From assembly GCA_049325595.1 (NCBI GenBank), contig JBMOLF010000015.1, positions 128,001 through 192,000 on the forward strand: DNA of 64,000 nucleotides, given 5' to 3'. The stretch's first letter is position 1. The number at the start of each line of letters is the position of its first letter. This document shows positions 1 to 42,542 of the stretch, piece by piece. The notes beneath the pieces were generated by a model. The model had not been told where the DNA came from. It saw only the letters and a program-made list of their open reading frames with translations, and did no database searches. A program made the position numbers and the translations under genes. The stretch comes from Candidatus Babelota bacterium (lineage in GTDB: Bacteria > Babelota > Babeliae > Babelales > Vermiphilaceae).

Positions 1-63
1 GTAGATATTTATTGCGCAGAAACTTGTTAGCAAAGCTAATAGTACGTATCTTTTTGTTATCAT
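1..63 (-). CDS. 5' end of a putative secreted protein, runs off the window (MITKRYVLLALLTSFCAINIY...)
   Basis: ATG at 63-61 with upstream AAGGA; signal-peptide-like open frame to the window edge. Confidence 0.6.
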   Translation of the reverse strand, partial: MITKRYVLLALLTSFCAINIY

Positions 64-86
64 AATTTTTTCCTTATCAATAACTC

Positions 87-638
87 TTATCCAAAGCGAT
101 ATTCCACAATAGTACCGTTTACTTGCTCACGTATGTTAAATATTTGATTGGTTTTTTTATCTTTACGGCATAATTGGTAATCGAACATATGGTTAGGTCT
201 TTGCGTAATCAAAGCTTTATAATAAGAGTGTTTATACTCAAATCTTGAAGAAAGATTGGTTGTAGTTTCCCCATTTAGCAATTGATCTATTGTATCGTGA
301 ATTTGTTTTATAACTTCTTTAGTTTCTGCCAAAACCTCATTATTATAAGCACTATCTTCAATGCTTGGTGCTTTAATAGTATTGTTAGATGTTGCGGATG
401 GAGTAGATGTTTTTTTGATGTATTTAATAAGACTTATCGCTGCAATTGTACCAATAGCGCCGCCTATTACAAGCTTGGGATTATTGGTAATTTTATTTAA
501 AAGATAATCGCTCGATTGGCCAGCAATTTTTGATAGGGTGCTTAATGCCGTAGAAGCTTTATCCTGCCAACCGGCATGTGCGGACTGATTTGCAAGAAAT
601 AATCCGGCCATAAGAACAGATATAGTAAAAAATTTCAT
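87..638 (-). CDS. Hypothetical secreted/membrane protein
   Basis: ORF track 87..695; ATG at 638 follows a GGAGG SD and begins a signal peptide (MKFFTISVL...AHA). Confidence 0.7.
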   Translation of the reverse strand: MKFFTISVLMAGLFLANQSAHAGWQDKASTALSTLSKIAGQSSDYLLNKITNNPKLVIGGAIGTIAAISLIKYIKKTSTPSATSNNTIKAPSIEDSAYNNEVLAETKEVIKQIHDTIDQLLNGETTTNLSSRFEYKHSYYKALITQRPNHMFDYQLCRKDKKTNQIFNIREQVNGTIVEYRFG

Positions 639-868
639 AAATAACCTCCAAAAATATATATCAATATAGACTACCAGTTTTGATATTTTTTTCAATTTGA
701 ATATAATTGCGGGTGTTTAAGGCTAATTATTTATGCTAAAATAATCCAGTTTTAATATATATAACTATGGAGAAGCATGAGATACTTGTTTTTTGTTAAA
801 AATGGTGCTTTAGGGTTATTGATACATTTTTTATAAAAAATTTAAGGTATTTTTCTAATTTATAAGAG

Positions 869-895
869 AAGAGGAAGCAAATCCAACTTCCTCTT
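869..895 (-). terminator. Hairpin terminator after dnaK-tail copy 1
   Basis: AAGAGGAAG...CTTCCTCTT inverted repeat. Confidence 0.6.
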
Positions 896-903
896 ATGTA
901 ATC

Positions 904-939
904 TTAGCTAATGTCAGCATCGATTGGGTTGTCAGATTT
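904..939 (-). repeat. dnaK 3'-end copy 1 (36 bp, encodes KSDN-PIDADIS*)
   Basis: Aligns to dnaK 5309-5347 with three synonymous changes and one codon deleted. Confidence 0.85.
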
Positions 940-1708
940 TTTGCAAATGATGCATACAAAGACTATTTGTTTGCTTGAGCTTTTTTGCAATAGATTTTAA
1001 TTCAGAATGTGAAGCATAACCGTACTCACTATGGTCGGTTGAGGCAGTAACATATTCCTTAAGGCAGTGGTAGCATTGTGTCGCATGTGCACCTTCTATA
1101 TCAGCTCTATGTTCAGCATACCGGTGATATTTTTTCGACACAGCAATAGCTGTCAGTATTTCAGCGATGGAAGAAAAAAATTTTGTGCGTTTGTTTTGCG
1201 CAAATATTTTTGAAATAGTAAATCTGCTTGCATAATAACCGGAGAACCAACAGAGCAGCATGCTTATTGAATCATCATATTTATAATGAATTGCTTCATG
1301 ATGCATGATAAATCTTTTGAACCCATAAAAGGGTGAGTATTGTAATGCTGTTTCATTTACGAAAATACCCTCTGAGTTAGTTAAAGCAACAGTCTCATAA
1401 TTAAAAAATTTCTTTCTAAAATTTGATGTATAAGTAGTTTTTACCGGTGGTAAAGTAAGTAGTGGTCCATTAAGAGATTGTTTAACTTCATTAGCAAGTT
1501 GCTGGTATTCTTCTGACGCAATCGAATCACTTAATCCCAGAGGTTTTTTTATAATTGTATGAACAACATGCATGAATTTTTTTATCGGAATTAATATTTT
1601 GGAATGTGCTAAATAAGTTTGGCATTTGTCAAATTGATTTGGCTCGTTACTAAAACAAACGTTAAAGAAAAATAATAAAGTGATTAATGAGAATTTTTTT
1701 ATTTGCAT
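932..1708 (-). CDS. Secreted HExxH zinc metallopeptidase-like protein (M48-like)
   Basis: Signal peptide, HHEAIH motif, downstream EHRAD. Confidence 0.65.
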   Translation of the reverse strand: MQIKKFSLITLLFFFNVCFSNEPNQFDKCQTYLAHSKILIPIKKFMHVVHTIIKKPLGLSDSIASEEYQQLANEVKQSLNGPLLTLPPVKTTYTSNFRKKFFNYETVALTNSEGIFVNETALQYSPFYGFKRFIMHHEAIHYKYDDSISMLLCWFSGYYASRFTISKIFAQNKRTKFFSSIAEILTAIAVSKKYHRYAEHRADIEGAHATQCYHCLKEYVTASTDHSEYGYASHSELKSIAKKLKQTNSLCMHHLQKI

Positions 1709-1828
1709 GAATCTCCTTTTTTTGGCAAATCTTAGTGTACAAAAATCAAAACTTCAACAGACTAAAATAATTGAATAAACAGAGAAAACCTTCTTATCAA
1801 TTTTATCAGATCAACAGCTATTCTTAAA

Positions 1829-2545
1829 TTAAAAATAATGCATAGTCGATTTTAATTCTTTAATATAAGACAATTGTCGCTGATAGGTATCTAAAAATTG
1901 ATCTTCATTGTGTGGATTAAGGCCAATAAGAAGATTGCCTAATCCATATATAAATATAATCAAGGAGACAGCAGATCCCCATCCAAGTACGAGTTCTAAA
2001 TTATTAAGATTTATTTTTGCTTGAAAAAGAGTATTTAGTTTATGAGAATTCAAGAAACGTCGGCCAGAAACAAATAAAGCTCCGCAGAATGTCTCAACCC
2101 GCATCCCTTGTTGCTGAAATTCTTTTTTAATAAAATTAAATTTTGATTTACTTTGCGTATACCATTTCTTGTAACTAATATAAAGCAAATAATTTAGCCC
2201 AGAACTGATGGCTATTGATATACATCCGTTGCGAATTGATTTATAATCGTACCTTTTGTTTTTAAATGATTCAATTCTTTTGATCCTCATTTCAAGTTTA
2301 TTTTCTAAGTCTAGCAATAATCCAAATTTATCTAATTCAAGAGATAATGAATCTAATGCGCTCTTAATCATTTCTTGAAATGTTTGATCATTAATATTTT
2401 TACTTTTGTTGAGAAATGCATTTGTGTCTTCTCTTAACAAAGTATAAGACAAAGGATGATTGTAAAAAAATGAATAGTTGTTGGAAGTTGTAGTAACCAA
2501 TATTAAAAATATAATTTTTAAAATTAAGCTCTTAACTAAATACAT
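1829..2545 (-). CDS. Hypothetical membrane protein
   Basis: 238-aa ORF with N-terminal hydrophobic stretch and two further TM-like segments. Confidence 0.65.
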   Translation of the reverse strand: MYLVKSLILKIIFLILVTTTSNNYSFFYNHPLSYTLLREDTNAFLNKSKNINDQTFQEMIKSALDSLSLELDKFGLLLDLENKLEMRIKRIESFKNKRYDYKSIRNGCISIAISSGLNYLLYISYKKWYTQSKSKFNFIKKEFQQQGMRVETFCGALFVSGRRFLNSHKLNTLFQAKINLNNLELVLGWGSAVSLIIFIYGLGNLLIGLNPHNEDQFLDTYQRQLSYIKELKSTMHYF

Positions 2546-2717
2546 TGATTTCTCATAAAGGTTTTATTTAACACTCATTTTTATAATATAACAGTTTTGG
2601 AAAATACTTTTATATTCGTTATTTAAGTCTAGAGTTTTATTATTTTTTATTAGTACAATTGATTTCGTGTAAGGTCAATTATTAAGAGTGCAAATAATAA
2701 GATGTTTTTAAAGAAAA

Positions 2718-2741
2718 AAGGGAACCTTTTAGGGTTCCCTT
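2718..2741 (-). terminator. Intrinsic terminator after dnaK-tail copy 2
   Basis: AAGGGAACC-loop-GGTTCCCTT with adjacent A-tract (U-tract on minus strand). Confidence 0.75.
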
Positions 2742-2763
2742 AAGTTTTATGGCTAACCAGATC

Positions 2764-2822
2764 TTAGCTAATGTCAGCATCTATTGGGCCATTGTCAGAC
2801 TTTTTGTCGTCTGATTCTGGTT
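2764..2822 (-). repeat. dnaK 3'-end copy 2 (59 bp), in frame with the kinase ORF
   Basis: 51/59 identical to dnaK 5309-5367; encodes [18 protein letters not shown]. Confidence 0.92.
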
Positions 2823-3546
2823 GTTGTCTTATTTCATAAGAATGATCATTTTTTTTGAAAATTACAAAATCTGCATATTGTTTAGTTGGAGCTATTGTTT
2901 TATGATAGTCTTCCATATCCCATTTTATATCTTCATCAAATTTTTCACGTGTTCGTGCTTTTTCTGGTGTTCTCAGTTCTCTTTTCCAATTCCATTCAAT
3001 AATATCTGTGTCATCAGCATCAAGAAAAACTCTTATACTGCTATATTTTAAAAAGTCATAACTTGTAGAGTCACACAAACAATAAATGCCTTCAAATAAG
3101 ATGAGATTAACATTATGAAAACAAGCAACTTCTGTATCTTTAGTGCTCACTTTTTCTGCGTGATCCCAGATTGGTTTTTCGATGTGTTCTTCTCCTGAAA
3201 TAATTTTCGAGAGAGTATCATGTAGTTTTATGTGATCGAAATTTTTATGGATTAATGGATTTTCTACCGGGGTAGGTTGTAGAAAGTCATCAGCCTTTAA
3301 AATTTTTACTTTAACCCCTTGCTGGCGCAATAATTTTGAAAGTTTTCTGGTGAAATAACTTTTGCCTACGGCAGAACAACCGGCAATGGCAATGATAGGT
3401 TTTGAAGAGGTAGGATTATCTGCGTGTTGTTGTGCTAATTTTTTTGCTTGTTCTAATAAAGGAGTGCATATAATTTCAAAATTATCTTCGCTTGCTTTAA
3501 TACTACTAATTAGGCTTAAAATCAAAATAATAGTAATTTTGTACAT
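2764..3546 (-). CDS. Uridine kinase/phosphoribulokinase-family P-loop kinase with signal peptide and DnaK-derived C-terminus
   Basis: IAIAGCSAVGKS P-loop, DDF, LFEGIY, VFLDAD, PTKQYADFVI motifs. Confidence 0.8.
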   Translation of the reverse strand: MYKITIILILSLISSIKASEDNFEIICTPLLEQAKKLAQQHADNPTSSKPIIAIAGCSAVGKSYFTRKLSKLLRQQGVKVKILKADDFLQPTPVENPLIHKNFDHIKLHDTLSKIISGEEHIEKPIWDHAEKVSTKDTEVACFHNVNLILFEGIYCLCDSTSYDFLKYSSIRVFLDADDTDIIEWNWKRELRTPEKARTREKFDEDIKWDMEDYHKTIAPTKQYADFVIFKKNDHSYEIRQQPESDDKKSDNGPIDADIS

Positions 3547-3669
3547 ACTGACCTTTTTTTGTTAATAAAATTTTTTAAATCACAAAAGTTTAATACAAAA
3601 TTATTATCAGAGCAATGGCCTAACGCTATAAGCTATACAAAATACCTAATTGCAATGTTTAAAGAAAAA

Positions 3670-3694
3670 AAGGGAACCTTTTGAGGGCTCCCTT
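3670..3694 (-). terminator. Intrinsic terminator after dnaK-tail copy 3
   Basis: AAGGGAACC...GGCTCCCTT, nearly identical to 2718-2741. Confidence 0.7.
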
Positions 3695-3718
3695 ATCGTA
3701 TAAGTGCTAATCTACTAT

Positions 3719-3825
3719 TTAGCTAATGTCTGCATCAATTGGACCATTGTCAGATTTAGTATCATCTAATTCTGGTTTTTGTTCTGCACCTTCAGCGCCG
3801 CCTTATTTGTATAACAATTCAGCTA
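3719..3825 (-). repeat. dnaK 3'-end copy 3 (107 bp, orphaned, with an internal CAA>TAA stop)
   Basis: 101/107 identical to dnaK 5309-5415. Confidence 0.95.
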
Positions 3826-3959
3826 GTTTTGTATATTGTTGAATAAATATGCATTAGTAATCGATGCCTGAGTTTAACGCATTTCTCTATTGAAGCATCA
3901 AATTGACAAAATCTTAAAATAATATATTCTAATAGAAACAATAAAGCGGGGGAAGAATT

Positions 3960-5177
3960 ATGAATAAAAAATTACTTTATGTTTTTTTAGTTGCATTTCT
4001 TTTTGATCATGGTTCGATTAGTTCGGCTGAAAAAAATTCCAAATTAATCTTTAATACGCCACTTAGTAATAGATTAAAAAAAGATTTTTTTCTTCAAGCT
4101 ACGCAAAAAAAGTCATGGGAAAAATCTTGCGAGCACATTTACAATAAATATTCCAATAACAAAAAAGACATAAGTCCTTTGGGTGTAGGTTTAGATGTAA
4201 CAAATCAAATCTCTTTCAATAGTCAACACGCAAACAAATCTCAAACTGATGCTTATTTATCTGTGATTAGTTTTAATAAGAGTCTATTTTGGCCAATAAT
4301 AGAGAGATGCAACATGCAATTGTTAATTAAAAAAATGATTGAACAAGAACGCATTATGGCAAAAACGCATTATGTTTTTTATCATGGTCAGAATAATACC
4401 TTTATCTTGTTGCAAGATATATTAAAAGAATTTGCTCAATTGAATTCTCAACATACCACCAATGAGAATTTTGAATTTTTACGATCACCATTTTCATCTC
4501 TAAGCGGCACTACAGTTCAAGATTTTCTAAAGGAAACGTTGGAAAAGTATCCATGCAGTAATTACGACAAAAAACCTGATATTAGCTGTCATCTTATTTC
4601 AGCTAATTTAAGTATTTTTGGTAATGAAACGCGCAACGGTGAAAATTCACTTTTTTATTTTTTGACTAACTACAGTTCATCACTAAATGATTTAAAAAAA
4701 ATTATTACTGAACTATTTATCAAGCTTAATATTGATCAAAATCATGTAGACAAGGTAATCAATACATACAAGCCCTTATTCAACAAATCAAATTATGGCC
4801 TTATGCAGCAGATTTTCATTCCAAAAAACCTTGTTGATTCTTGTGTTTATTTATCAGAGCCCTTTGGTATTCCTTACAAAGAGCAAATTGATAAAAATAC
4901 TTTTGATACTGTAAAGCGTATGCATACCAAAATTTCTTCTATTTTGGAGTTATACCAAAAAGAACCTGAAGCACTCAACAAGTCAACTTGGTACAAGTGG
5001 TTCACGCTATCAGAGAGTCATTTGATGAAAATGCAAGCCCGAATTTTAATGACTAAGGATATAATGCTAAATCCCAACAGTGGTGTAAAAATTTATCGAC
5101 ACCATAAATTTGATGTTGAGGTATACAATCAGTGTAAAGCAGAGTTGAGAAAAATTATTAATTTAATAAGATCATAA
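3960..5177 (+). CDS. Hypothetical secreted protein (YVFYHG motif)
   Basis: 405-aa ORF, GGGGGA SD, signal peptide. Confidence 0.75.
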   Translation: MNKKLLYVFLVAFLFDHGSISSAEKNSKLIFNTPLSNRLKKDFFLQATQKKSWEKSCEHIYNKYSNNKKDISPLGVGLDVTNQISFNSQHANKSQTDAYLSVISFNKSLFWPIIERCNMQLLIKKMIEQERIMAKTHYVFYHGQNNTFILLQDILKEFAQLNSQHTTNENFEFLRSPFSSLSGTTVQDFLKETLEKYPCSNYDKKPDISCHLISANLSIFGNETRNGENSLFYFLTNYSSSLNDLKKIITELFIKLNIDQNHVDKVINTYKPLFNKSNYGLMQQIFIPKNLVDSCVYLSEPFGIPYKEQIDKNTFDTVKRMHTKISSILELYQKEPEALNKSTWYKWFTLSESHLMKMQARILMTKDIMLNPNSGVKIYRHHKFDVEVYNQCKAELRKIINLIRS

Positions 5178-5253
5178 ACACGATAATAACAATTAAGAAA
5201 AAAAAGCTTGCTTAGTACAAGTAAAAAAAATTTTTCCTTGTAATTTAGAAACA

Positions 5254-5280
5254 AGAGAGGGGCGTAAAGCGCCCCTCTCT
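5254..5280 (-). terminator. dnaK terminator (possibly bidirectional)
   Basis: AGAGAGGGGCG-TAAAG-CGCCCCTCTCT hairpin. Confidence 0.85.
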
Positions 5281-5308
5281 TTATATTTACTACTGGCCTA
5301 AAACAACA

Positions 5309-7192
5309 TTAGCTAATGTCTGCATCAATTGGACCATTGTCAGATTTGGTATCATCTGATTCTGGTTTTTGTTCTGCGCCTTCAGCGCCACCTTGTTTGT
5401 ACAACAATTCAGCTACTTTGTGAGACGCTTTGAGCAATTCATCGTGAGCTTTTTGCAATTCTTCTGCATTATGCTCATGTTCTTTGAGTGCAGATTTAGC
5501 TTTATCGATTGCTTGTTGCAGATCTTGTGCATCTTGAGCAGGGATTTTTTCTTTATTCTCTGCTAAGGTTTTTTCGATTTGCAAGATGGTGCCATCAAGT
5601 TGATTTCTTTTTTCAACTGTTTCACGGGCTTTTTTGTCTTCAGCTTCGTGTGCTTTTGCATCTTGTACCATGCGATCGATTTCTTCTTTGCTTAAGCCGC
5701 TGCTGCTGGTAATAGTGATTTTTTGCTCTTTACCAGAAGCTTTGTCTTTTGCAGAAACATGTACAATACCGTTAGCATCGATGTCAAACGACACTTCAAC
5801 TTGTGGAACGCCACGAGGAGCGGCAGGAATACCTTCTAATCTGAATTGGCCAAGCATTTTGTTATCTTTGGCAAATTCACGCTCACCTTGGAATACACGA
5901 ATATCTACGGCTGTTTGATTATCTTCAGCAGTTGAGAATACTTGTGATTTCTTGGTTGGGATTGTGGTATTACGTTCAATTAACTTGGTCATCACGCCGC
6001 CAAGGGTTTCAATACCAAGTGACAACGGAGTAACGTCAAGCAAGAGTACATCCGTTACTTCACCTGCTAATACACCACCTTGAATTGCAGCGCCAACGGC
6101 TACTACTTCATCAGGGTTTACTGATTTGTTAGGTTCTTTACCAAAGAACTCTTTAACTAATTGCTGTACTTTTGGAATACGGGTTGAACCACCAACTAAG
6201 ATAACTTCGTCAATTTGGCTTGGGCTTAATTGTGCATCAGCAAGTGCGCGTTTGCATGGTTCGAGTAAGCGTTTGAAAATGTCTGAGCAAAGAGACTCAA
6301 GTTTTGCACGAGATAATTTGATATTCAAGTGCTTAGGACCGGTTGCATCAGCAGTGATGTAAGGCAAATTGATATCGGTTTCGTGTAAGGTTGAAAGCTC
6401 TTTTTTTGCTTTCTCAGCCGCTTCTTTTAAGCGCTGTAACGCCATGCTATCTTTAGTAAGATCGATGCCTTGCTCTTTTTTAAATTCATCAGCAATGTAA
6501 TCGATTAACACATGGTCAACGTCGTCACCACCAAGATGGGTGTCGCCATTGGTTGAGCGCACTTCGATAACGCCATCATTAATTTCTAGGACTGAAATAT
6601 CAAATGTACCACCACCAAAGTCAAACACGGCAATAGTACCACTTTTTTTCTTATCAAAGCCATAGGCTAATGCTGCTGCAGTAGGCTCGTTGATGATACG
6701 TTTTACTTCTAAGCCTGCAATGCGACCTGCGTCTTTGGTTGCTTGACGTTGTGAGTCGTTAAAATAAGCAGGTACCGTAATTACCGCTTCGGTAACTTTT
6801 TCGCCTAAAAACTCTTCAGCGGTTTGCTTGAGTTCGCTCAAAATAGCCGCAGATATTTCTTGTGGGGTATATTCTTTGCCTTGTGCGACGATAGCAATGT
6901 CGCCATTGCTGCGCTTTACTATTTTGTAAGGCATTTTTTTGATTTCATTGGTCATTTCATCATATTGATGGCCAATGAAACGCTTAACTGAATAAATGGT
7001 GTTTTCAGGGTTGGTAACTGCTTGACGTTTTGCTAAGGTACCTACCAAACGTTTGCCATCTTTGGTAAATGCAACGATAGAAGGGGTTGTATTTGAACCA
7101 TCTTTATTAGGAATAACTTTCGGGGTACCACCTTCCATGAAGGCTACTACCGAGTTGGTTGTTCCTAAATCTATGCCAATTATTTTTGCCAT
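5309..7192 (-). CDS. dnaK: Molecular chaperone DnaK (Hsp70)
   Basis: [36 protein letters not shown] signatures. Confidence 0.99.
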
Positions 7193-7268
7193 GGATTTAG
7201 CCCTTTAGTTTTATAGTTGGTTTTCGTTAAAAATATTTGATTTTAATAATCTCATAAAATCCCTATAA

Positions 7269-7298
7269 ATTATAGATAAAACATACCCCCTCTGTCAA
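7269..7298 (-). promoter_or_regulatory. Consensus sigma70 promoter of dnaK
   Basis: Minus strand TTGACA (7298-7293), 18-bp spacer, TATAAT (7274-7269). Confidence 0.75.
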
Positions 7299-7432
7299 AC
7301 AAATACTAAAAAAATCTTAGTCTTTTACACTAAGCTTTTATATAAATAAAAATTTAACTTTTAACCTGAATAAATTTATGTAAATTTTTTCTATGTTCGA
7401 TAATGTTTCACACAGGCATAAATAATTATAAG

Positions 7433-7465
7433 CGTCGCATAACGAAAGTATTCTGTAACAATATT
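7433..7465 (+). other. dif-like/protein-binding motif, copy A
   Basis: CGTCGCATAACGAAAGTATTCTGTAACAATATT; related copy on minus strand at 52731-52761. Confidence 0.4.
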
Positions 7466-7639
7466 CGATCGACGCACTTGATTGACCTGTTTTTTTTCTG
7501 ATTTTGTTTGCGCGATTTGAGCCCTTATTTATAAGGTTTTTAGGAGTAATTGATTCGCGCGGCGCGCGACAGGGCACTCCGTCTGCACCCCTCAGCCCAT
7601 TTTGTGGGTAGGGAAGGGGGGCTTACGGGGATTTGACTC

Positions 7640-8400
7640 CGTTAAAAACAGGAAGCAGGAGGAAGAAGAGGAAAGCGAGGGGGAAAGGATTAAAAATAGG
7701 GGAAAGAAAGGATGGGGGAGAAAATAAGGGAGGAATAAATAAAAGAGATAGGTTAGGTGTAGAGGTATAAGTAATAAGAATAATAGACACCTGTATATAA
7801 GCACATGGCATGACTTAGCTAAAAGATAAATAAATATGATGTATGATGTAGGAATTAAAACTATATAGCATTAAAACAAAGTAAAAACTTACTTATATAA
7901 AAAGTATACAAGAGAATAAGATATGAGAGATAAGAGAAAGAGAATATGCATGATATATAGACTTAGAATATATAGGGTGAAGATAAATAGAAATCTAAAG
8001 ATTAAGAAATAAGAGCAAAGTCAAAAACTAAGACTAAGAATACTCGCTAAAGACATAACTAGTACTAAGATTAAACAAAGAAGAAGAGTAATAAACAATA
8101 AGCAAAACTAACCGATAAGAAATAAACAATAATAAAGCAAACTAATAAGATAACCAAGAAGAACAAGAAGCTCTATAAATTTATGGAGCAAAAGAAGAAC
8201 TTAAGCAAGAAGGCAAATACCAATAAGAAATCTACTGATTATTATTAGAAGAGTATAACTAGCTAATACTAAAAAAAGACGTAGTTAGAAAAGAAGAAGG
8301 GTGATAAGAATAAGAAGAAGAAGAAAAGGAATATATCTTATTAAAATACCGTTAAGAGGAAGATCAAAAACTCCACATCGCATGAAAAGAACAGTAAGAC
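7640..8400. other. Non-coding, purine-skewed low-complexity tract
   Basis: Plus strand A/G-dominated (one C in 7661-7760); no credible ORF. Confidence 0.8.
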
Positions 8401-8565
8401 AATATCTTCACACGAACCAATCAAACGTTGCGCAATAATTTGAGCCAAAATAACCAATAGATACGCTATTTTTTCTCATTTAATAGTTTTATTTGTTAAA
8501 AAAATAAGTAGTCCAATATATTTTTTTTTACATTATATTTTTAGATGAAAATCATACTTATCATA

Positions 8566-9879
8566 TTATTTAAAAAATAACCTAAAAGGGGAAAGACGGC
8601 GCGGCTGGTTCTTATAATCATTTTTTATTATCACTATCTCCTGCCATTTAACCTTTTTAGTAGCAAGCCACATTATTACCATGCTTACTAATCTCACCGT
8701 TTGAATCGCCACTAATGCAAATAACAACCCTGTTTTTGCAACGATCACTACTACAATAGCTGCCCCATACCCTAGCCCGTATACAATATATGAAGTAATT
8801 AATTCTTTATAACGCCCTTGCACTTCAAGTATACGCTCATAAGGTAATAATAATGATTCTGCTATGTAAGAACAAATTAAAATAAGTAACGGAACAAAAA
8901 ATTGATTATCAAAAATATACGGCAAACAAATAAGCAATAACATTAATAACATAATAAGAGGTATAGTTAACAACATGACCTTTCTTTTTAGGTGAATAAC
9001 CGACTTATTAAAAAAGTTTTGTTCTCCTAACTCATTAGCATATGAGAGAAATGCTGTATCAGCTGATCCAAGAGATTTTACTACTATCCGGTAACAGGCG
9101 AGCGCGGCGTCATTAGTTATTTTGTAAAGAGTGGCACTTTCTATTCCTAGCGTGGCGGCAAAAAAAGGTAATAAAAAGTTTCGCTCGCTCAAGCTTTTTA
9201 AAATGGTAGTAACGCCCATTATGCCTGTATGCTTGGTAAATGAATTTTCAATTGTTGGTGAACCAACAAACGGTACTTGCTGGACTATAAACCTCTTGAG
9301 ATTAATTCCTGTTATTAAAACGGCCATACCTGTGGTTAATAATTTGACCATTAACAGTTTCTCAAGAGTTAAACAAGTAAATGCTATATAACTAATACCG
9401 AGTATTTCGATGGCAGTTACGAGTATTAAAACACAATTGAACTGTTTATTTAAAAAATAGGCGTGAGAAATATTTTGAAGTAAAAAAACAATTCCCTGAG
9501 CTATAAATAGCGTTAAATATAAAATTATTTGGGTGGCTGAAAAATAAGGAAACAAGAATCGATGAAAAAAGAAGATTCCTAAACTCGCTACACCTAGCAG
9601 AGCTAATTGAAAATAAATAATTTTCTTAATAAGGCTATGCGATTGCTGTAGTAATGATAAGGCAAATCGGGCAATTGATTTTTTTAGACCACAATCAAGC
9701 CACAAGAGAATAAGATATAACAATGCCAGGCTATGCGACCATTGATAGAAAATAAAAGTATCGCCGCAATAATATACACAATAAGAACTGAGCAGTTGCG
9801 CAATCTTGGTGCATGAAAAAAGAAGTGCGTTCCAGGTAAGAGCTGAAGTAAATGAAGAAAAAAGATGTGCTGATTTCAT
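8566..9879 (-). CDS. MOP-superfamily (Wzx/MATE-like) flippase-like membrane protein
   Basis: About 12 hydrophobic segments, LDCGL motif near N-terminus; resembles 11297-12613. Confidence 0.6.
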   Translation of the reverse strand: MKSAHLFSSFTSALTWNALLFSCTKIAQLLSSYCVYYCGDTFIFYQWSHSLALLYLILLWLDCGLKKSIARFALSLLQQSHSLIKKIIYFQLALLGVASLGIFFFHRFLFPYFSATQIILYLTLFIAQGIVFLLQNISHAYFLNKQFNCVLILVTAIEILGISYIAFTCLTLEKLLMVKLLTTGMAVLITGINLKRFIVQQVPFVGSPTIENSFTKHTGIMGVTTILKSLSERNFLLPFFAATLGIESATLYKITNDAALACYRIVVKSLGSADTAFLSYANELGEQNFFNKSVIHLKRKVMLLTIPLIMLLMLLLICLPYIFDNQFFVPLLILICSYIAESLLLPYERILEVQGRYKELITSYIVYGLGYGAAIVVVIVAKTGLLFALVAIQTVRLVSMVIMWLATKKVKWQEIVIIKNDYKNQPRRLSPFRLFFK

Positions 9880-9995
9880 AGTGACTGCGTAGGTTATGTA
9901 TAAGAATCATTGTACTATAATGCCAAATAGTTGCTCAGAACGATAGCTATTTGTTATGGTTAGCATAATTTGTGGTGTTTCACTTAAGGAATATA

Positions 9996-11285
9996 ATGAA
10001 TTTAAAGAGAGTGGTAGTTTTAATTATGGCGATAAAGCTAACCATGCTCGGAGCTATTTTTATTAATTCTTACGAGGATAACAGCCGTTTTTTTATTGGT
10101 AGACAACCAGAAGACGATAGTCGCTTTTTTGCAAGCGATGATGAAATTATTCCCGTAGAAGCTTATGATATTTTTGGAAGCACCCGACTTATGAATGCGG
10201 TTTCAGCCCCAGATTTACCCGAAATAGTTAAATTGCTCAAAGCGGGGGCAAACGTCAATGCTCATTCAAGAGATTATGAAGGTGGAACGCCATTGATTTT
10301 TGCTGTTCAAAATGGTTTTATGCCAGGCATGTTTGAGGCCATAGCTCTGCTTGTTGAATATGATGCCGATATTAATGCTAAAGATAATGTAGGAATGACC
10401 GTATTTCATTACCTTAATAGCATTCCAGACCCTATTATGATGGAAAATTTGTTGCATTTATTTGTAGATCGTGGCGGCGATATTAATGCAATTAACAATA
10501 ATGGCGATACGATGATGCATATATTTGTATATCAATATGATCCTCAATTTATATGGATGATACGTCAAAAATATGGATCTATCCTTGATCTCACTATAAA
10601 AAACAATCAAGGTTATACACCAGCACAACTTGCACAATTATTAAGCCCTTCATTAGTGGAGGGAGATGATAGTGTATACACAGCATTAACAAAACCGCTA
10701 CCATTGGTGGGTGAAGATGGTAATGTCAATGCGCGTGATATTTATGGCAGGACTGGACTCATGCTTGCTATATTACGATCTGATATTCCTTTTATAAAAG
10801 AAATGATTGCTCGAAAAGCCGATGTTAATGCGCGTGACAATTGGTATAATACCCCACTTCATCTAGCAGCATTTAGCCAAAATCCTTTAAAAATTGCGCA
10901 GCTTCTTATCGAACAAGGTGCTCAAATTAATGTTGTAAATAGCGAAGGGAAAACGCCTCTTCGTCTTGCTCAATCTATACCCGATGGTTCGCATGTTCTT
11001 GAGTATATAACCTATCTTAAGGAACAAGGCGCTCAATTAATAGCGGTTGATAGAGAAGGATTTGATGTTGAATATTGGGCCGAGCAAAAGAAAAAGAGAG
11101 ATATTAAGCGCTTTTTAGATGAATACCATTCTTATCTTCCCGAGACAGCTGGAGACAAAAGATTTTTAATTGGATTTAATTCTATACAAAGTGAAAAATT
11201 AAATGGTGGTCAATTAAAAAAACGAGCTAAAAATTCATTGATGAGAAAAAACGGTATGTTTAAAGTATTTACCTGCGTTGTGTAG
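9996..11285 (+). CDS. Ankyrin repeat protein, signal peptide
   Basis: GTPLIFAV, GRTGLMLA, NTPLHLAA, GADVNA-type repeats; start chosen after AAGGA. Confidence 0.9.
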   Translation: MNLKRVVVLIMAIKLTMLGAIFINSYEDNSRFFIGRQPEDDSRFFASDDEIIPVEAYDIFGSTRLMNAVSAPDLPEIVKLLKAGANVNAHSRDYEGGTPLIFAVQNGFMPGMFEAIALLVEYDADINAKDNVGMTVFHYLNSIPDPIMMENLLHLFVDRGGDINAINNNGDTMMHIFVYQYDPQFIWMIRQKYGSILDLTIKNNQGYTPAQLAQLLSPSLVEGDDSVYTALTKPLPLVGEDGNVNARDIYGRTGLMLAILRSDIPFIKEMIARKADVNARDNWYNTPLHLAAFSQNPLKIAQLLIEQGAQINVVNSEGKTPLRLAQSIPDGSHVLEYITYLKEQGAQLIAVDREGFDVEYWAEQKKKRDIKRFLDEYHSYLPETAGDKRFLIGFNSIQSEKLNGGQLKKRAKNSLMRKNGMFKVFTCVV

Positions 11286-11296
11286 AAAACTATCAA

Positions 11297-12613
11297 CTAT
11301 GAGCTTTTTTGGATTGATTTTTTAAAGAGCCCATTAAATCGTTTTATCCAAGCAATGTTCCACGAATAATCTTTTCGTTGAGTGGTCAAGCGAAGTGCAA
11401 AAACATGAATAGCTTTTATTACTGATAAAAATCCAATATAAGTGTATGCCGCTGAGGTAGTAATACATGGCAACAACGCAAGAGCTGCTGCAAAAGTTGC
11501 CATATTAAATTTAAAAATAAGATGTGCATGACCTTGAACGCGCAAAAGGCGCTCATAAAAAATTGAAACGTGTTCAAGCAGATACAAAACAAAAACAGCA
11601 ACTGAAAGACGCACATTAAATACATCAGTTTGACTAAAGAATAATCCGAGTGTTAAAAAGGTGCCACACCAAATTAATAGAGAACATGCTTTGCGCGCGT
11701 AATAAAAAATTGTCTGATAGTGAGCATGCTCTTCTTTTACCTTATGTGCAAGCAAAGCTTCAACAGATGGCCCTAATACTTTGTTTAATAAAATGCTGAC
11801 TACATAAATAATATTCCTGACCAGTTCTAAAACACCTGCTTTGTTAAAACCATAGTAAGCAGCAATAAGTGGTATCAAAATATTTCCTGAAAAAATTTGA
11901 TGGACAAACTGGCTTCCATAATTGTAAATACGTTGTTTTTTTATTCGTGTCGTATAATTGCCTTTTGTTGTCTTACGTGGAAGCATATGATATAGATGGC
12001 TTGATTTTACAATTAACAGTGTTGTACTTATTAACGATGCAATAAGCATAGGAGTTAATAAGTGAGAAATGGTAAATACTTTAGCGTGTAAATACCAGCC
12101 CCATACAAATAAAACATAGGTACCAATAAGTATAATTTCACTTATCGTGGTTGTTTGGTTGCAAAATGAAATGTGAAGGAATCTTCTGAGGGATTTTCTT
12201 ATTATCTCAACAATAATAATAAGAAGAATTATGACAAACATACCATTCGATAATTGAAGAATGGGAACTTGTAGATAACATTTGAGTACAGGAATTGTTA
12301 TAGCAAAAAAAAGCGTTGCCCAAATAGCTTGTGTTACTATTGGTTTAATGAGCAATTGATTAAATTGATATTTGCTGTCAGTAATAGTTTTATAGCTAAA
12401 GCTTAATGACTCTTCGAACCCGCTAGAAAATAATGCAATAGCGCAATAAATAAGTGAAAAATAAGTGCCTGATTGTCCATATACGTATGGTTCGGTGTAC
12501 ACGTAGGCATAACAATGATGTACCGCAAAGGTAATATGATAAAACAATGATTCAGCAATATTCCAAATCAAACTTACCGAAAATTTTTTTGAAAGTTGTA
12601 TAGTATTATTCAT
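11297..12613 (-). CDS. MOP-superfamily flippase-like membrane protein
   Basis: Multi-TM; shares L(I/T)WN start and YER(L/I)LxVQG with 8566-9879. Confidence 0.6.
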   Translation of the reverse strand: MNNTIQLSKKFSVSLIWNIAESLFYHITFAVHHCYAYVYTEPYVYGQSGTYFSLIYCAIALFSSGFEESLSFSYKTITDSKYQFNQLLIKPIVTQAIWATLFFAITIPVLKCYLQVPILQLSNGMFVIILLIIIVEIIRKSLRRFLHISFCNQTTTISEIILIGTYVLFVWGWYLHAKVFTISHLLTPMLIASLISTTLLIVKSSHLYHMLPRKTTKGNYTTRIKKQRIYNYGSQFVHQIFSGNILIPLIAAYYGFNKAGVLELVRNIIYVVSILLNKVLGPSVEALLAHKVKEEHAHYQTIFYYARKACSLLIWCGTFLTLGLFFSQTDVFNVRLSVAVFVLYLLEHVSIFYERLLRVQGHAHLIFKFNMATFAAALALLPCITTSAAYTYIGFLSVIKAIHVFALRLTTQRKDYSWNIAWIKRFNGLFKKSIQKSS

Positions 12614-32653: not shown

Positions 32654-33610
32654 CTAAATATTATTTGACTGTAAAAAATCATTTAATTTACGCTCTGGCG
32701 CTGCTTCAATACGCTTCATGCGCTCAATGTCCCCCAGATATACTTCAGTAGTCGTTGGCGCAGTATGCCGCATAGCAAGCTGTACTTCATAAAGTGATGC
32801 TCCAGCTTGCATGGCCATTACCCCAAAGGTGTGTCTCAAGCTATGGGCCGTAATGCGTGTGCTTACAATGCCAGCATCACGCAAGCGATTTTTTATAATG
32901 CGGGAAAGAGAATGAATGGTAATGCGTCTGCCATAATTGCGGTCTGAAAGAGAACTAAATAATGGATCTTTGGTAGAAATTTTTTGCCGCGCTTTTAAAT
33001 AATCTCTAATGGGCTCATAGGCTTCGGGAGTTAATAATACAAAATCATCTTTACCATCGCGCGCCTTACCGCGAATCCATAACAAAACATCAGTTTCAAA
33101 ACTCATATCGGCAATATCAGCCCGCTTAATTTCAATTAAGCGCAGGCCAGTTCTTATGAGTAAATTAATAAGTGCGTAATCTCGTTTGCCAACAAGTGTT
33201 GTACGATCGATAGATGATAATAATATTCTAATTTGTCCTACGGTAAGCGCATTTTTTTGGTGGCTTTTAACTTGCTTTTTTGCGCCCTTTATACCGCGCG
33301 CAATGTTGGGATACATTTTAATGGTCTCGGTCCATTCAAAAAATTTTCTTACCACTACTAAATAAGCAGAGCGGGTAAATGGACGCAAGCCTTTAAGATC
33401 CAGGCTTTCTTTGTAGGCTAAAATAGTTTCTCGTGTGGGATTGGCATGAGTAGTTTGAGCAAACCAGATAAAAAATTGCTTGAGAGCATTGCGATAAGAA
33501 ATGCGTGATGTTTGTGTAATATCTTGCGCTGCGATAAACTGTTCGAGTAATGCTTCAAATTGTGAAAATGGTATTTGGCTTACTGCATTGTTATGCTCCA
33601 CTAACTCCAT
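32654..33610 (-). CDS. Tyrosine recombinase/integrase (XerC-like or phage-type)
   Basis: RDYA..TGLR, K(A)R, HSLRH, MRH...TEVY catalytic residues. Confidence 0.92.
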   Translation of the reverse strand: MELVEHNNAVSQIPFSQFEALLEQFIAAQDITQTSRISYRNALKQFFIWFAQTTHANPTRETILAYKESLDLKGLRPFTRSAYLVVVRKFFEWTETIKMYPNIARGIKGAKKQVKSHQKNALTVGQIRILLSSIDRTTLVGKRDYALINLLIRTGLRLIEIKRADIADMSFETDVLLWIRGKARDGKDDFVLLTPEAYEPIRDYLKARQKISTKDPLFSSLSDRNYGRRITIHSLSRIIKNRLRDAGIVSTRITAHSLRHTFGVMAMQAGASLYEVQLAMRHTAPTTTEVYLGDIERMKRIEAAPERKLNDFLQSNNI

Positions 33611-41636: not shown

Positions 41637-42542
41637 ATGTTAGCTATTACTGATTTATTTGAATCTTTTAAGCAATTTTTATTAACACAAAAAAGAGTTT
41701 CTCAAAACACATTTGAAGCATATGTTTCTGACTTATCCCAATTTAAAGAATTTTTATTGCACAACAATATTAGCATTCTTACGTTAGACTCTTCTTGCGT
41801 AAAAAAATATATTTCTTATTTGGTTGAGACTTTACAGTTAAGCGCATCAAGTCGCGCACGCAAGATTTCATGCTTAAAAGCTTTTTTTTCGTTTTTGCAC
41901 ACACACTACAACATTCCTAATTTAGGTCTTGAATTATTAATCCCCAAATTAGAAAAGAGATTGCCACATTTTCTGTCTGAAGCAGAAATAGATCAACTAC
42001 TGCGCGTAGCTGATTTAGATACGACTACTGTTGGGGTCCGCAATAAAACTATGCTGTATCTTTTATATGTCACAGGAATGCGTATTAGTGAGCTTACCAA
42101 TTTAACAATAACGTCATATCATGCTGAAACTGGATTTTTGCGTGTAAATGGTAAAGGAAACAAAATGCGCGAAATTCCACTACCACATTCAATTCTTGAT
42201 ACCCTCAATCACTATGTAACGGTAATTAGACCCAAACTTTGCCAGGAATTACGATCAGATTATATGTTTCCTATTTTGTATGGCGGCTCAGTAAGACCAA
42301 TTACTCGACAAGCATTTTGGGTGATACTCAAAAACTTATGGAAAAAAACTGGCATTAAAAAAAATATTTCACCACATCAACTTAGGCACTCATTAGCGAC
42401 TCATTTACTCAAACGTGGCGCTGATTTACGATCGTTGCAGCAAATACTTGGTCATGAAAATGTTTCTACCGTTCAAATATATACTCACGTTGAAACCACT
42501 CATTTGCGTAAAATATATGATAAGAAACATCCACGCTCATAA
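41637..42542 (+). CDS. xerD: Site-specific tyrosine recombinase XerD
   Basis: LYVTGMRISEL, GKGNK, TRQAFW, SPHQLRHSLATHLL, QIYTHV, HPR end. Confidence 0.88.
   Translation: MLAITDLFESFKQFLLTQKRVSQNTFEAYVSDLSQFKEFLLHNNISILTLDSSCVKKYISYLVETLQLSASSRARKISCLKAFFSFLHTHYNIPNLGLELLIPKLEKRLPHFLSEAEIDQLLRVADLDTTTVGVRNKTMLYLLYVTGMRISELTNLTITSYHAETGFLRVNGKGNKMREIPLPHSILDTLNHYVTVIRPKLCQELRSDYMFPILYGGSVRPITRQAFWVILKNLWKKTGIKKNISPHQLRHSLATHLLKRGADLRSLQQILGHENVSTVQIYTHVETTHLRKIYDKKHPRS

Follow-up and report, generated by a model that had tools for sequence, protein, structure and literature searches.

Tandem direct repeats of the 3' end of a gene, running up to its stop codon, are the classical footprint of integrative elements (e.g., phage 21 and e14 in icd, ICESt1/3 in fda, or the SCC arrays in rlmH). 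Tandem accretion at gene 3' ends is known for the SCC arrays in rlmH, for ICE/CIME at fda and for tRNA-gene islands, and the remnants that lack an integrase include CIME, psi-SCC and satellite-type elements. Homology-facilitated illegitimate recombination (HFIR), another route into conserved genes, was reportedly described by de Vries & Wackernagel in 2002 and by Prudhomme et al. in 2002. In C-terminal displacement arrays, according to the excerpted text of PMC5361080, the displaced ends are variable toxin domains accompanied by immunity genes, and the conserved homology is located upstream. In Escherichia coli, the excerpt of PMC3240628 reports 56 of 60 clones with a 109-950-bp duplication of the homologous end, explained by one crossover with a molecule that had been partly degraded and had re-circularised.

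Here we describe a locus of a member of the order Babeliales (Dependentiae, TM6; G000, a 1.29-Mb metagenome bin of 24 contigs) in which the end of dnaK recurs behind the intact gene. All coordinates in Table 1 refer to the window, i.e., the whole 64,000-nt stretch of DNA that was analysed.

Table 1. Features of the dnaK-tail array, ordered outward from dnaK
Feature	Position	Strand	Description	Evidence
dnaK	5309-7192	minus	intact, 627 aa	Pfam HSP70, E 1.5e-266
Current dnaK tail	5309-5419	minus	last 37 codons including stop; repeat reference	repeat search, blastn-short, alignment
Terminator 0	5253-5281		GC-rich palindromic hairpin of 13 bp where dnaK and ORF405 converge	-24.9 kcal/mol, z -4.3
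Insertion next to dnaK, probably the newest	3830-5308		about 1.48 kb: terminator 0, ORF405, ORF405 promoter region	break of homology with G001; gap in X4 contig
ORF405 (module C cargo)	3960-5177	plus	405 aa, hydrophobic N-terminus, convergent to dnaK	
Leftover tail 1	3719-3829	minus	107-111 nt, 94% identical to current tail, in-frame TAA	repeats, BLAST
Terminator 1	3670-3694	minus	ancestral dnaK terminator type, as in G001	-13.4 kcal/mol, z -2.0
Module B cargo	2764-3546	minus	260-aa uridine-kinase/PRK-family ORF, hydrophobic N-terminus	
Leftover tail 2	2764-2827	minus	64 nt, 86% identical, in frame with kinase ORF	
Terminator 2	2718-2741		second, diverged copy of ancestral terminator type	-15.2 kcal/mol, z -2.2
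Module A cargo 1	1829-2545	minus	238-aa ORF	
Module A cargo 2	932-1708	minus	258-aa ORF, weak M48-peptidase-like match	
Leftover tail 3	904-939	minus	36 nt, lacks one codon (KSDN-PIDADIS*), frame differs from that of ORF 932-1708	
Hairpin after leftover 3	869-895	minus	unflagged by terminator scan	-14.0 kcal/mol, z -2.8

Copies of the dnaK tail and the genes between them

The first-pass annotation of this DNA held that the end of dnaK recurs three times downstream of the gene, in the same orientation and up to the stop codon, and both the repeat search and a blastn-short search of all 24 contigs, with the last 200 nt of dnaK as the query, agree. The BLAST matches are 3719-3825 (107 nt, 6 mismatches, E 5e-42), 2764-2827 (64 nt, 9 mismatches, E 3e-9; initially given as 59 bp, and in fact also fused in frame to the kinase-like ORF) and 904-927 (24 nt, 2 mismatches, E 0.048), the last of which reaches the 36 bp originally claimed only with a one-codon (Gly) deletion. 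The repeat search identifies a 111-nt family consisting of 5309-5419, 3719-3829 (94%) and 2764-2874 (65% over the full 111 nt), and a 28-nt family with four copies (5306-5333, 3716-3743, 2761-2788 and 901-928). All three leftovers are co-oriented with dnaK and end at a stop codon, and both their similarity to the current tail and their length drop with distance from dnaK, as had been noticed at the outset. The 5' edges differ between the copies: counted back from the stop codon, they lie at 111, 64 and 36 nt. By its sequence, leftover 1 appears to be a former end of dnaK. The sole further match with E <0.05 consists of 19 nt on contig C1 and corresponds to query positions 172-190, i.e., to the body of dnaK outside the tail. 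A six-frame genome-wide search with the tail peptide yields four matches, all within this 4.4-kb stretch and on one strand; thus, the tail is not a dispersed repeat, an objection that the annotation had raised against its own reading.

Hairpins follow all four tails, as the same annotation proposed for the three copies, but the one behind leftover 3 is not called as a canonical terminator. The terminator scan of positions 700-5500 finds 8 sites, compared with 2.0 +/- 1.6 in shuffled sequences, and assigns terminator 0 to the plus strand only, terminator 1 to the minus strand and terminator 2 to both. Alignment shows that terminator 0 is unrelated to the dnaK terminator of G001, a closed genome of the same genus whose DnaK is 97% identical in amino acid sequence.

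The genes between the copies are unrelated accessory genes, as originally stated; the signal peptides ascribed to them are a by-eye reading of the N-termini. ORF405 (module C) belongs to a large Babeliales paralog family with homologs in 40 of 80 family genomes, including 23 matches in G013, 7 of which are directly downstream of dnaK; it has no Pfam match, and the protein atlas assigns it no function. The module B ORF matches the Pfam PRK family over residues 51-230 (1.7e-16) and the NCBIfam uridine kinase family below the cut-off (2.2e-16), and its last ~20 residues are the DnaK tail, its three true homologs ending by query residue 234-239. In module A, the first cargo gene has no known family in Pfam and no paralog in the genome; the second shares 34% identity with the gene directly after dnaK in G001 and has a paralog of its own at C15:126236-127012.

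Empty sites and recurrence in related genomes

G001 possesses a single dnaK tail without leftovers and lacks module C. Its dnaK tail and terminator match leftover 1 and terminator 1 at 93.3% over 165 bp, so the old tail was displaced when the 1.5-kb module beside dnaK was inserted. The homology to G001 halts at the dnaK stop codon (5309) and restarts at 3829, and the sequence now behind the G000 stop is unrelated. A 1633-nt contig from run X4, which belongs to a different study, aligns with 2764-3682 (44 differences) and then with 5304-5700 (39 differences), carries 31 other letters between the two blocks and skips 3683-5303; this contig shows the site of module C unoccupied in a relative whose kinase ORF is already fused to the tail. 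The kinase part of X4 is 95.2% similar to G000 and the dnaK part 90.2%, which hints at module exchange. Past the kinase stop codon (2764), the contigs from X4 and from run X2 carry different DNA, so that homology again breaks at the stop codon of a tail. Because module C is absent from both G001 and the X4 relative, the comparison supports the module nearest dnaK as probably the newest.

The order is not purely chronological. The spacers between tail and terminator form a mosaic of G001-like and X4-like variants (that of leftover 1 is G001-like, and by eye the spacer of the X4 dnaK is closer to that of leftover 2), and two leftover pairs include the terminator, which together suggests later recombination between tail copies; the mosaic spacers require additional events beyond simple stacking. 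The chronological stack initially postulated therefore stands with respect to the displaced dnaK ends and the newest module beside dnaK, but not as a strict sequence of arrivals. The six sites that vary among the current tail, leftover 1 and the G001 tail split 3:3, which would fit a crossover product and equally substitutions after duplication, and yields no polarity.

Similar dnaK-tail leftovers are found in at least five other Babeliales genomes of four other families: G024 (46 nt, 96%), G089 (86 nt, 94%), G161 (81 nt, 91%, with two further copies on contig C29), G094 (179 nt including the terminator, 92%, on a separate small contig) and G127 (26 nt, 88%, fused to an ORF; a weak match with E 0.004). 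The 3' edge is within 0-6 nt of the stop codon in G024, G089 and G161. The leftovers of G094 and of C29 in G161, being on separate small contigs, could come from a second strain in the bin. The survey catches only leftovers that retain the GPIDxD codons and involved inspection of 10 multi-hit genomes among the matches listed, not an unbiased sample; the frequency in Babeliales is a lower bound. The prediction that the downstream region varies among relatives is borne out: at 14 of the 30 loci ychF lies no more than 7 kb from dnaK, with gaps of between 123 nt and 6.7 kb, and in G000 the gap is 13.6 kb; in genus g24, dnaK and the M3 peptidase gene are 0.45, 4.0, 4.7 and 6.0 kb apart. Two other loci of G000 contain small inserted genes with the same flanking architecture, namely C21, with 125-bp repeats covering the tail, the terminator and the leader of the next gene, and C11, with a 52-nt tail repeat. 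The same scar at these loci speaks for a recombination route of general use and against an enzyme specific to dnaK.

Possible routes of array growth

These observations appear best compatible with an accretion array at a recombination landing pad, entered by homology-anchored circular DNA through a RecA-only single crossover, to which we give about an even chance and which is the most likely reading. A circle bearing a fragment of the dnaK 3' end would integrate by one crossover within that fragment (Campbell-type insertion-duplication). The circle might be a re-circularised piece of a related genome, presumably of the Babeliales, that includes the dnaK end and its downstream neighbors, or, alternatively, a module excised from an existing array as a loop between two of its tail copies. 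The product would consist of full dnaK, the donor DNA, the duplicated tail fragment and the old terminator of the recipient; dnaK would stay whole at each entry because a second copy of the tail arrives with the event, and the earlier tail, its terminator and everything behind would be shifted one step outward. At least three entries would have occurred within the last 36-111 nt of dnaK, each module being self-contained, with one or two genes, a promoter region and a terminator. The 5' edge of a leftover would be the start of the dnaK fragment on the circle, so that the 5' edges would differ between events; the 3' edge would be the stop codon if donor and recipient differ downstream, or lie further out if the circle carried the terminator. 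As such an insertion would have it, the G001-type terminator stands behind leftover 1 and new DNA behind the current tail, and the genome encodes homologous recombination machinery (RecA, C15:147225-148013, 424 bits). One point against this route is the shortness of the homologies, 26-111 nt, for an efficient RecA crossover; erosion may have trimmed leftovers that were once longer, and would also hide a common crossover core. Contig-level comparison detects neither a circular form nor a donor genome in the contigs. Should the landing-pad reading be correct, the array would point to simple gene capture without a dedicated enzyme. A further step, a working integrase-free cassette system in which RecA loops out a module between any two tail copies and the circle re-enters the dnaK tail in the same or a co-resident related cell, is a tentative and rather doubtful extension. 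Under this extension, the conserved, disordered C-terminus of DnaK, which would tolerate junction variation and be conserved enough to pair, would be a shared site of gene exchange in lineages with reduced genomes and few classical mobile elements, such as Dependentiae.

The mechanism initially named was HFIR, in its classic form an event in which linear DNA taken up by transformation is anchored in dnaK and an illegitimate joint, with 3-10 bp of microhomology expected, forms inside the dnaK tail of the recipient. The variable 5' edges of the leftovers and a 6-nt overlap (TCAGAA) between a duplicated gene end and the leftover in G024 (by eye, at one junction) would agree with it, RecA, DprA and a ComEC-like gene are present, and the excerpt of PMC5361080 proposes this mechanism for the analogous T6SS effector-immunity arrays and Rhs orphans. 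We nevertheless consider it unlikely: the HFIR products in the excerpt of PMC3240628 combine insertion with deletion in the recipient, anchor-end duplication being seen there with a single crossover of a re-circularised molecule, whereas here the recipient tail and terminator are kept and duplicated. Furthermore, the joint would have to hit the last ~110 nt of dnaK every time; where the terminator is duplicated as well (leftovers 1 and 2; G094), the pairs resemble crossover duplications; and competence genes are widespread, the ComEC-like match is interrupted by an internal stop, and natural transformation in this group is unproven. Site-specific elements that entered the dnaK 3' end with an attP carrying a substitute tail, and then accreted in tandem and lost the integrase or were mobilised in trans, would also leave direct repeats of the gene end around the inserted DNA. 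An attP that restores the gene would make the repeat end exactly at the stop codon, two G024 remnants have the same 5' edge, and, at distances of 27-118 kb from dnaK, the genome encodes three tyrosine recombinases of Xer-like type, including a divergent one (the nearest two, both Xer-like, at 32657-33610 and 41637-42539 of the window). However, no integrase or transposase domain is detected by Pfam in the six ORFs of the stretch, in line with the first-pass annotation, and integrase, recombinase and transposase families account for none of the 125 ORFs whose starts fall in the 5 kb behind dnaK at 30 Babeliales loci (E <= 1e-5). There are likewise no recombinases in the arrays of G000, G094 and G161, and a pattern scan of viral contigs for the dnaK tail of this genus gives 0 matches. 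Given also that the modules are only 1-2 kb, that two unrelated genes of the genome show the same scar and that the 5' edges (36, 64 and 111 nt here, 26-86 nt elsewhere) share no common core, a lack that had been recognized from the start although erosion might account for it, we regard this origin as quite improbable.

Purely local events, i.e., tandem duplication or replication slippage of the tail and terminator, with genes arriving by unrelated means and no import of a tail, are very unlikely. Such events could account for the tail and terminator common to leftovers 1 and 2, for the 179-bp duplication including the terminator in G094 and for leftover 1 differing from the current tail at only 6 of 107 positions, but local duplication leaves unexplained why, at module C, the sequence after the current stop is unrelated to the ancestral one; moreover, the cargo genes come from families found elsewhere, the site is empty in a congener, and conservation is higher in the kinase module than in dnaK. 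That the array is an assembly artefact, with strain haplotypes joined at a common repeat, might be suspected for a metagenome bin in which the repeat has a 39-nt identical core, and is extremely unlikely. Independent Logan contigs from the probable source run cover the array in overlapping pieces (765-3748, 3728-5338 and 5318 onward) and break only within the 39-nt stretch common to the tail and leftover 1; depth is even (28-33) across the array, with only the 39-nt unitig doubled (63.9 vs about 30). In addition, the X2 contig, from another study, runs from terminator 1 through leftover 1 into the module (3639-3885, 13 differences), the leftovers are decayed (stop codon, codon deletion, fusion), and the pattern is also found in five other genomes.

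Relation to known systems

Integrons are likewise ordered stacks of small cassettes with the newest beside the entry point. An integron was considered and rejected for this locus: no IntI gene adjoins the array, the six ORFs lacking a recombinase domain, and the boundaries are direct repeats of dnaK coding sequence, not attI or the imperfect inverted repeats of attC; the cassettes are not promoterless, ORF405 being convergent to dnaK with its own upstream region and a shared terminator. The accretion of integrative elements similarly produces cargo arrays split by direct repeats of the target 3' end, with some units devoid of a recombinase; in contrast, their core is short and fixed, and somewhere in the population at least one unit bears a recombinase; neither feature was found here. 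With HFIR, as presented in the excerpts of PMC3240628 and PMC5361080, the locus shares a one-sided homologous anchor in a conserved gene that admits non-homologous DNA; the difference is that the anchor end is duplicated here and the recipient suffers a deletion there.

The Campbell-type insertion-duplication seen in E. coli (PMC3240628, excerpt) is similar in that a direct duplication flanks foreign DNA without a site-specific recombinase; the homologies here are shorter, the duplications measuring 26-179 bp. That case is a laboratory plasmid system, and the excerpted text describes no array that grew in nature by returning again and again to a single chromosomal gene end. The C-terminal displacement arrays (rhs and cdiA orphans, the T6SS effector-immunity arrays of Vibrio cholerae), as covered by the excerpt of PMC5361080, share with the dnaK locus an intact main gene followed by co-oriented orphaned 3' fragments, an ordered arrangement with no known integrase, and a presumed anchoring by homology to the conserved portion of the main gene. 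The dnaK leftovers differ in being the conserved end of an essential housekeeping chaperone, and the cargo (a PRK-family kinase, an M48-like ORF and ORFs without a known family) is unrelated, often on the opposite strand, and gives no sign of toxin-immunity logic. Taken together, the Rhs/CdiA/T6SS displaced-end arrays are the closest known counterparts of the dnaK-tail array.

The repeated dnaK ends and the genes between them

The dnaK gene of the Babeliales genome under study (G000; 1.29 Mb in 24 contigs, approximately 34.5% G+C; the window corresponds to G000:C15:128001-192000) is followed, toward lower coordinates, by three extra co-oriented copies of its own 3' end (denoted leftovers 1 to 3; see the table), all of which terminate where the dnaK stop codon lies. 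Used as a query against the complete genome, the final 200 nt of dnaK detect no further copies of the tail, the sole other match below an E-value of 0.05 being 19 nt that correspond to the interior of the dnaK gene body, and in a six-frame peptide search all four matches to the tail peptide fall at the array. Given that both searches match the array only, the copies, already noticed in the first-pass annotation, are real and restricted to this locus, and do not represent a dispersed repeat. A hairpin is located behind each of the four tails (flagged as terminator-like in three cases), and the array stretch contains 8 terminator-like sites, compared to 2.0 +/- 1.6 in shuffles. Upstream of dnaK, the segment 7560-8440 of the window is purine-rich and non-coding; no Rfam family was matched in positions 1-12000.

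Features of the dnaK array in the window and leftover dnaK tails in other Dependentiae genomes (f, family)
Feature	Genome	Window position	Orientation	Description
dnaK	G000	5309-7192	minus	627 aa; Pfam HSP70, E 1.5e-266
Leftover 1	G000	3719-3829	same as dnaK	107 nt, 6 mismatches, E 5e-42 against the current tail; in-frame TAA
Leftover 2	G000	2764-2827	same as dnaK	64 nt, 9 mismatches, E 3e-9; in-frame fusion to the kinase-like ORF
Leftover 3	G000	904-939	same as dnaK	ungapped match of 24 nt, extended to 36 nt by allowing a one-codon deletion; not in the frame of ORF 932-1708
ORF405	G000	3960-5177	convergent to dnaK	405 aa
Uridine-kinase/PRK-family ORF	G000	2764-3546		ends with ~20 residues of in-frame DnaK tail
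ORF238	G000	1829-2545		238 aa; no known family
ORF 932-1708	G000	932-1708		weakly M48-like
Leftover tail	G024 (f7)			46 nt, 96% identical; two convergent repeat-protein genes (one HEAT by Pfam) and two further boundary repeats
Leftover tail	G089 (f6)			86 nt, 94% identical; two convergent ORFs
Leftover tail	G161 (f12)			81 nt, 91% identical; convergent AAA_14-DUF4143 ATPase; two more leftovers and two more such ATPases on contig C29
Leftover tail	G094 (f6, genus other than that of G089)			179 nt, 92% identical, tail and terminator; on a separate 3.9-kb contig
Leftover tail	G127 (f11)			26 nt, 88% identical, E 0.004; end of a 400-aa ORF

The N-termini of all four cargo ORFs are hydrophobic, as judged by eye, and a domain search reveals no recombinase or transposase domains in any of them. 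For ORF405, no function is obtained from Pfam or from the atlas, the scores of which are below its own lead threshold. In another Dependentiae genome, G013, seven genes of the ORF405 family are arranged in a row (C58:86085-108640) directly downstream of dnaK (109209-111095) and convergent to it; the whole genome contains 23 matches to this family, and no leftover tail was detected at that locus. A 202-aa ORF just past leftover 3 (window 87-695) has a second copy at G000:C22:2957-3557 (85-94% identical at the protein level), which is split over two frames and is probably frameshifted.

Independent contigs of the probable source run tile the region (765-3748, 3728-5338 and 5318 onward) at a depth of 28-33 and break only within 39 nt that are identical in the current tail and leftover 1; the unitig of these 39 nt has a depth of 63.9, the expectation for two copies. 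In X2, a sequencing run from another study, a 247-nt contig (3639-3885, 13 differences) spans the junction of terminator 1 (the hairpin behind leftover 1), leftover 1 and the module, and identical stretches of ORF405, of the kinase gene and of ORF238 occur in X2 and in another run, X3. Decay is also visible in the leftovers: one contains a stop codon, one has lost a codon and one is fused to an ORF. Because of the independent tiling at even depth, the bridging contig in X2 and the decay of the leftovers, the possibility that the array is an assembly artefact appears extremely slim, with the check resting on contigs rather than reads. The shares contributed by X2, X3 and a third outside run, X4, are small and uninformative on habitat.

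Polarity and mosaicism of the insertions

A genome of the same genus, G001 (one contig; DnaK 97% identical), has a single tail and no leftovers. Homology between the two genomes ends exactly at the dnaK stop codon (5309) and restarts at 3829, and the dnaK end of G001 matches leftover 1 together with terminator 1, from 3829 to 3665 (93.3%, 165 bp). Behind the dnaK stop of G000, there is a strong palindromic hairpin (5253-5281), followed by ORF405; this region has no counterpart in G001. Since the homology skips from 5309 to 3829 and the new downstream DNA is without a counterpart, the segment 3830-5308 is an insertion that gave dnaK a new downstream region and beyond which the former tail and terminator now lie.

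A 1633-nt contig from X4, a run from an unrelated study, contains in succession a counterpart of 2764-3682 (44 differences, 95.2%), 31 other letters, and a counterpart of 5304-5700 (39 differences, 90.2%); in this relative, dnaK, a terminator and the kinase-tail fusion are present, and ORF405 and leftover 1 are absent. From the comparisons with G001 and X4, the module nearest dnaK is the youngest and the kinase module is older. The first-pass annotation had described the array as a stack in which each new module pushed the previous tail outward, and this description is supported by the polarity in both comparisons and by the drop in tail identity and length with distance from dnaK (94%, 86%, then 36 nt). 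Shared substitutions among the current tail, leftover 1 and G001 are not decisive for polarity: leftover 1 agrees with G000 at three and with G001 at three of the six synonymous sites that separate their tails. Such a split would fit a crossover product with an ancestral distal part, and is no proof of one.

Between X4 and G000, the kinase module is more alike than the adjacent dnaK end (95.2% and 90.2%), a pattern that an accessory gene would not be expected to show unless its transfer came after the divergence of the hosts. Past the kinase stop codon, the DNA in X4 and X2 is unlike that of G000, so that homology breaks again at the stop codon of a tail. Leftovers 1 and 2 have both the tail and the terminator in common; the spacer of leftover 1 is G001-like, and the 31 letters of X4 are, by eye, nearer to the spacer of leftover 2. 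Because of the shared terminator and the mixed spacer types, further recombination between copies of the tail and terminator probably occurred, in which case the stack would be no clean chronicle.

Recurrence behind dnaK and at other gene ends

Conservation of the DnaK C-terminus (GPID-x-D/E...) extends across the order. In 39 loci, the final 150 nt of dnaK were compared with the downstream DNA of the same genome, and a motif-codon screen covered 261 Dependentiae genomes; leftovers are present in at least five further genomes from four other families (table). The repeats of G024, G089 and G161 extend 0-6 nt past the stop codon. Among the matches listed from the motif screen, 10 multi-hit genomes were re-listed, and no further arrays were found in these; the motif pair 1.3 kb apart in one genome, G205, is an internal motif of tandem LRR-type paralogs and not a pair of tails. 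In sister genomes of G089, G161 and G127, dnaK is just 76-83% identical and the intergenic DNA is unalignable, so that these sisters are uninformative on insertion polarity. A metagenome scan with the genus-specific tail yielded 8 loci, none of the same genus, comprising seven single dnaK ends of other Babeliales and one unrelated chance match; no second tail is present where downstream DNA is available.

Two further repeats bound the two modules of G024: one of 90 bp (L024:542-631 and 2012-2101 of the extracted locus), in which the first repeat-protein gene has its 3' end, and one of 53 bp (L024:2096-2148, 4364-4416), which adjoins the leftover tail; by eye, the two repeats abut with a 6-nt overlap.

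Scanning the last 120 nt of 1104 G000 ORFs against their own neighbourhoods identifies mostly tandem paralogs, and two other loci with the architecture of the dnaK array. On contig C21 (19174-19846), a 146-aa ORF lies between 125-bp repeats, each comprising the last 41 nt of the upstream gene, a terminator and the leader of the next gene; on C11 (49724-51298), a 52-nt gene end is repeated 1.5 kb downstream, behind two small ORFs. The occurrence of the same architecture at both loci favours a general recombination route rather than a dnaK-specific enzyme.

The interval behind dnaK varies widely, in line with the variable gene content expected in the first-pass annotation: the spacing between dnaK and the ychF gene behind it ranges from 123 nt to 6.7 kb in 14 of 30 loci (those with ychF within 7 kb) and is 4.7 kb in G001 and 13.6 kb in G000, and in the genus g24 the next conserved gene is 0.45, 4.0, 4.7 or 6.0 kb away from dnaK. 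The absence of a local recombinase, claimed for the array from its cargo, extends to the relatives, with no integrase, recombinase or transposase families among the 125 ORFs that start within 5 kb behind dnaK in 30 loci. Most of these ORFs belong to no family; among the others are various enzymes as well as ankyrin, TPR, HEAT, WD40 and LRR-BTB proteins. Dependentiae live in association with protists and have reduced genomes, and their accessory genes largely encode secreted or eukaryote-like repeat proteins, such as those found behind dnaK in the relatives; the acquisition and turnover of such genes in these genomes are poorly understood.

AAA_14-DUF4143 ATPase genes recur behind dnaK, with one adjoining ychF in G000 (L005:10353-11495, i.e., G000:C15:120353-121495) and three located between the leftover tails of G161 (L107:4486-5652; L130:3181-4368 and 4501-5667). 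The dnaK-ychF interval of G000 also contains a gene with a histone-deacetylase domain (L005:17035-17922, G000:C15:127035-127922) and a class B acid phosphatase gene (L005:15341-15988, G000:C15:125341-125988). In another genome, G021, dnaA is found ~5 kb downstream of dnaK (L025:5362-6651).

Possible mechanism and comparison with known systems

The array, with the full gene, donor DNA, a duplicated gene end and the recipient's old downstream DNA, has by analogy the geometry of the duplications described in PMC3240628, where 56 of 60 clones carried a 109-950-bp duplication of the homologous end, which its authors attribute to one crossover joining the chromosome to a partly degraded molecule that had re-circularised. 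Homology-anchored single-crossover capture has, in our estimate, about an even chance of being the mechanism. A circle with a dnaK-end fragment would enter by a single crossover, the 5' edge of the leftover being the start of the fragment on the circle. Such a model would account for the variable 5' edges, for homology that stops at the stop codon where the downstream DNA of donor and recipient is different, for the terminator-including pairs, and for the lack of recombinase genes. With two tails in place, modules could be looped out by tail-to-tail recombination and re-enter elsewhere. RecA is present in G000, as are DprA and a ComEC-like gene (with an internal stop), and because of the latter two, DNA uptake is conceivable. 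The homologies are short, and both the circle and the donor are inferred.

The mechanism named in the first-pass annotation, homology-facilitated illegitimate recombination (HFIR), yields insertion with deletion of recipient DNA according to PMC3240628, whereas the array shows a duplicated gene end; classic HFIR is accordingly unlikely. That interpretation holds for the stack, for the order of its modules and for the absence of a local recombinase, but its mechanism is probably wrong. Decayed or trans-acting site-specific elements would likewise leave a boundary at the stop codon if their attP restored the gene, and erosion may have hidden a common core; with neither a recombinase nor a constant core at the locus, such elements seem improbable. 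The tyrosine recombinases of G000, considered as enzymes of the array, are Xer-like, distant from it and without a link to it. An origin of the copies by purely local duplication is very doubtful.

The dnaK locus preserves, at a single site, a dated and legible history of one acquisition after another; an empty-site relative exists, and the pattern recurs independently in five families. This pattern suggests that a role normally credited to integrases can be filled by ordinary homologous recombination acting at a highly conserved gene's end. In annotation, a short stretch that resembles dnaK, or a chimeric ORF closing with a DnaK tail (the kinase here, the ORF in G127), is to be read as a recombination scar rather than a new domain.

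No description of dnaK-tail arrays was found in the titles and abstract openings of the literature searched. In contrast to integrons, the dnaK locus has no IntI and no attC, and in contrast to integrase-borne islands, it has neither a recombinase nor a constant core. Among described systems, displaced-end arrays come nearest; these comprise the orphans of Rhs and CdiA and, in Vibrio cholerae, T6SS effector-immunity arrays. PMC5361080 proposes for the V. cholerae arrays an HFIR-like anchor within their conserved upstream portion and an integrase-free, integron-like outward displacement. At the dnaK locus, by contrast, what has been displaced is the conserved terminal part of a gene for an essential chaperone, and unrelated accessory genes make up the cargo.
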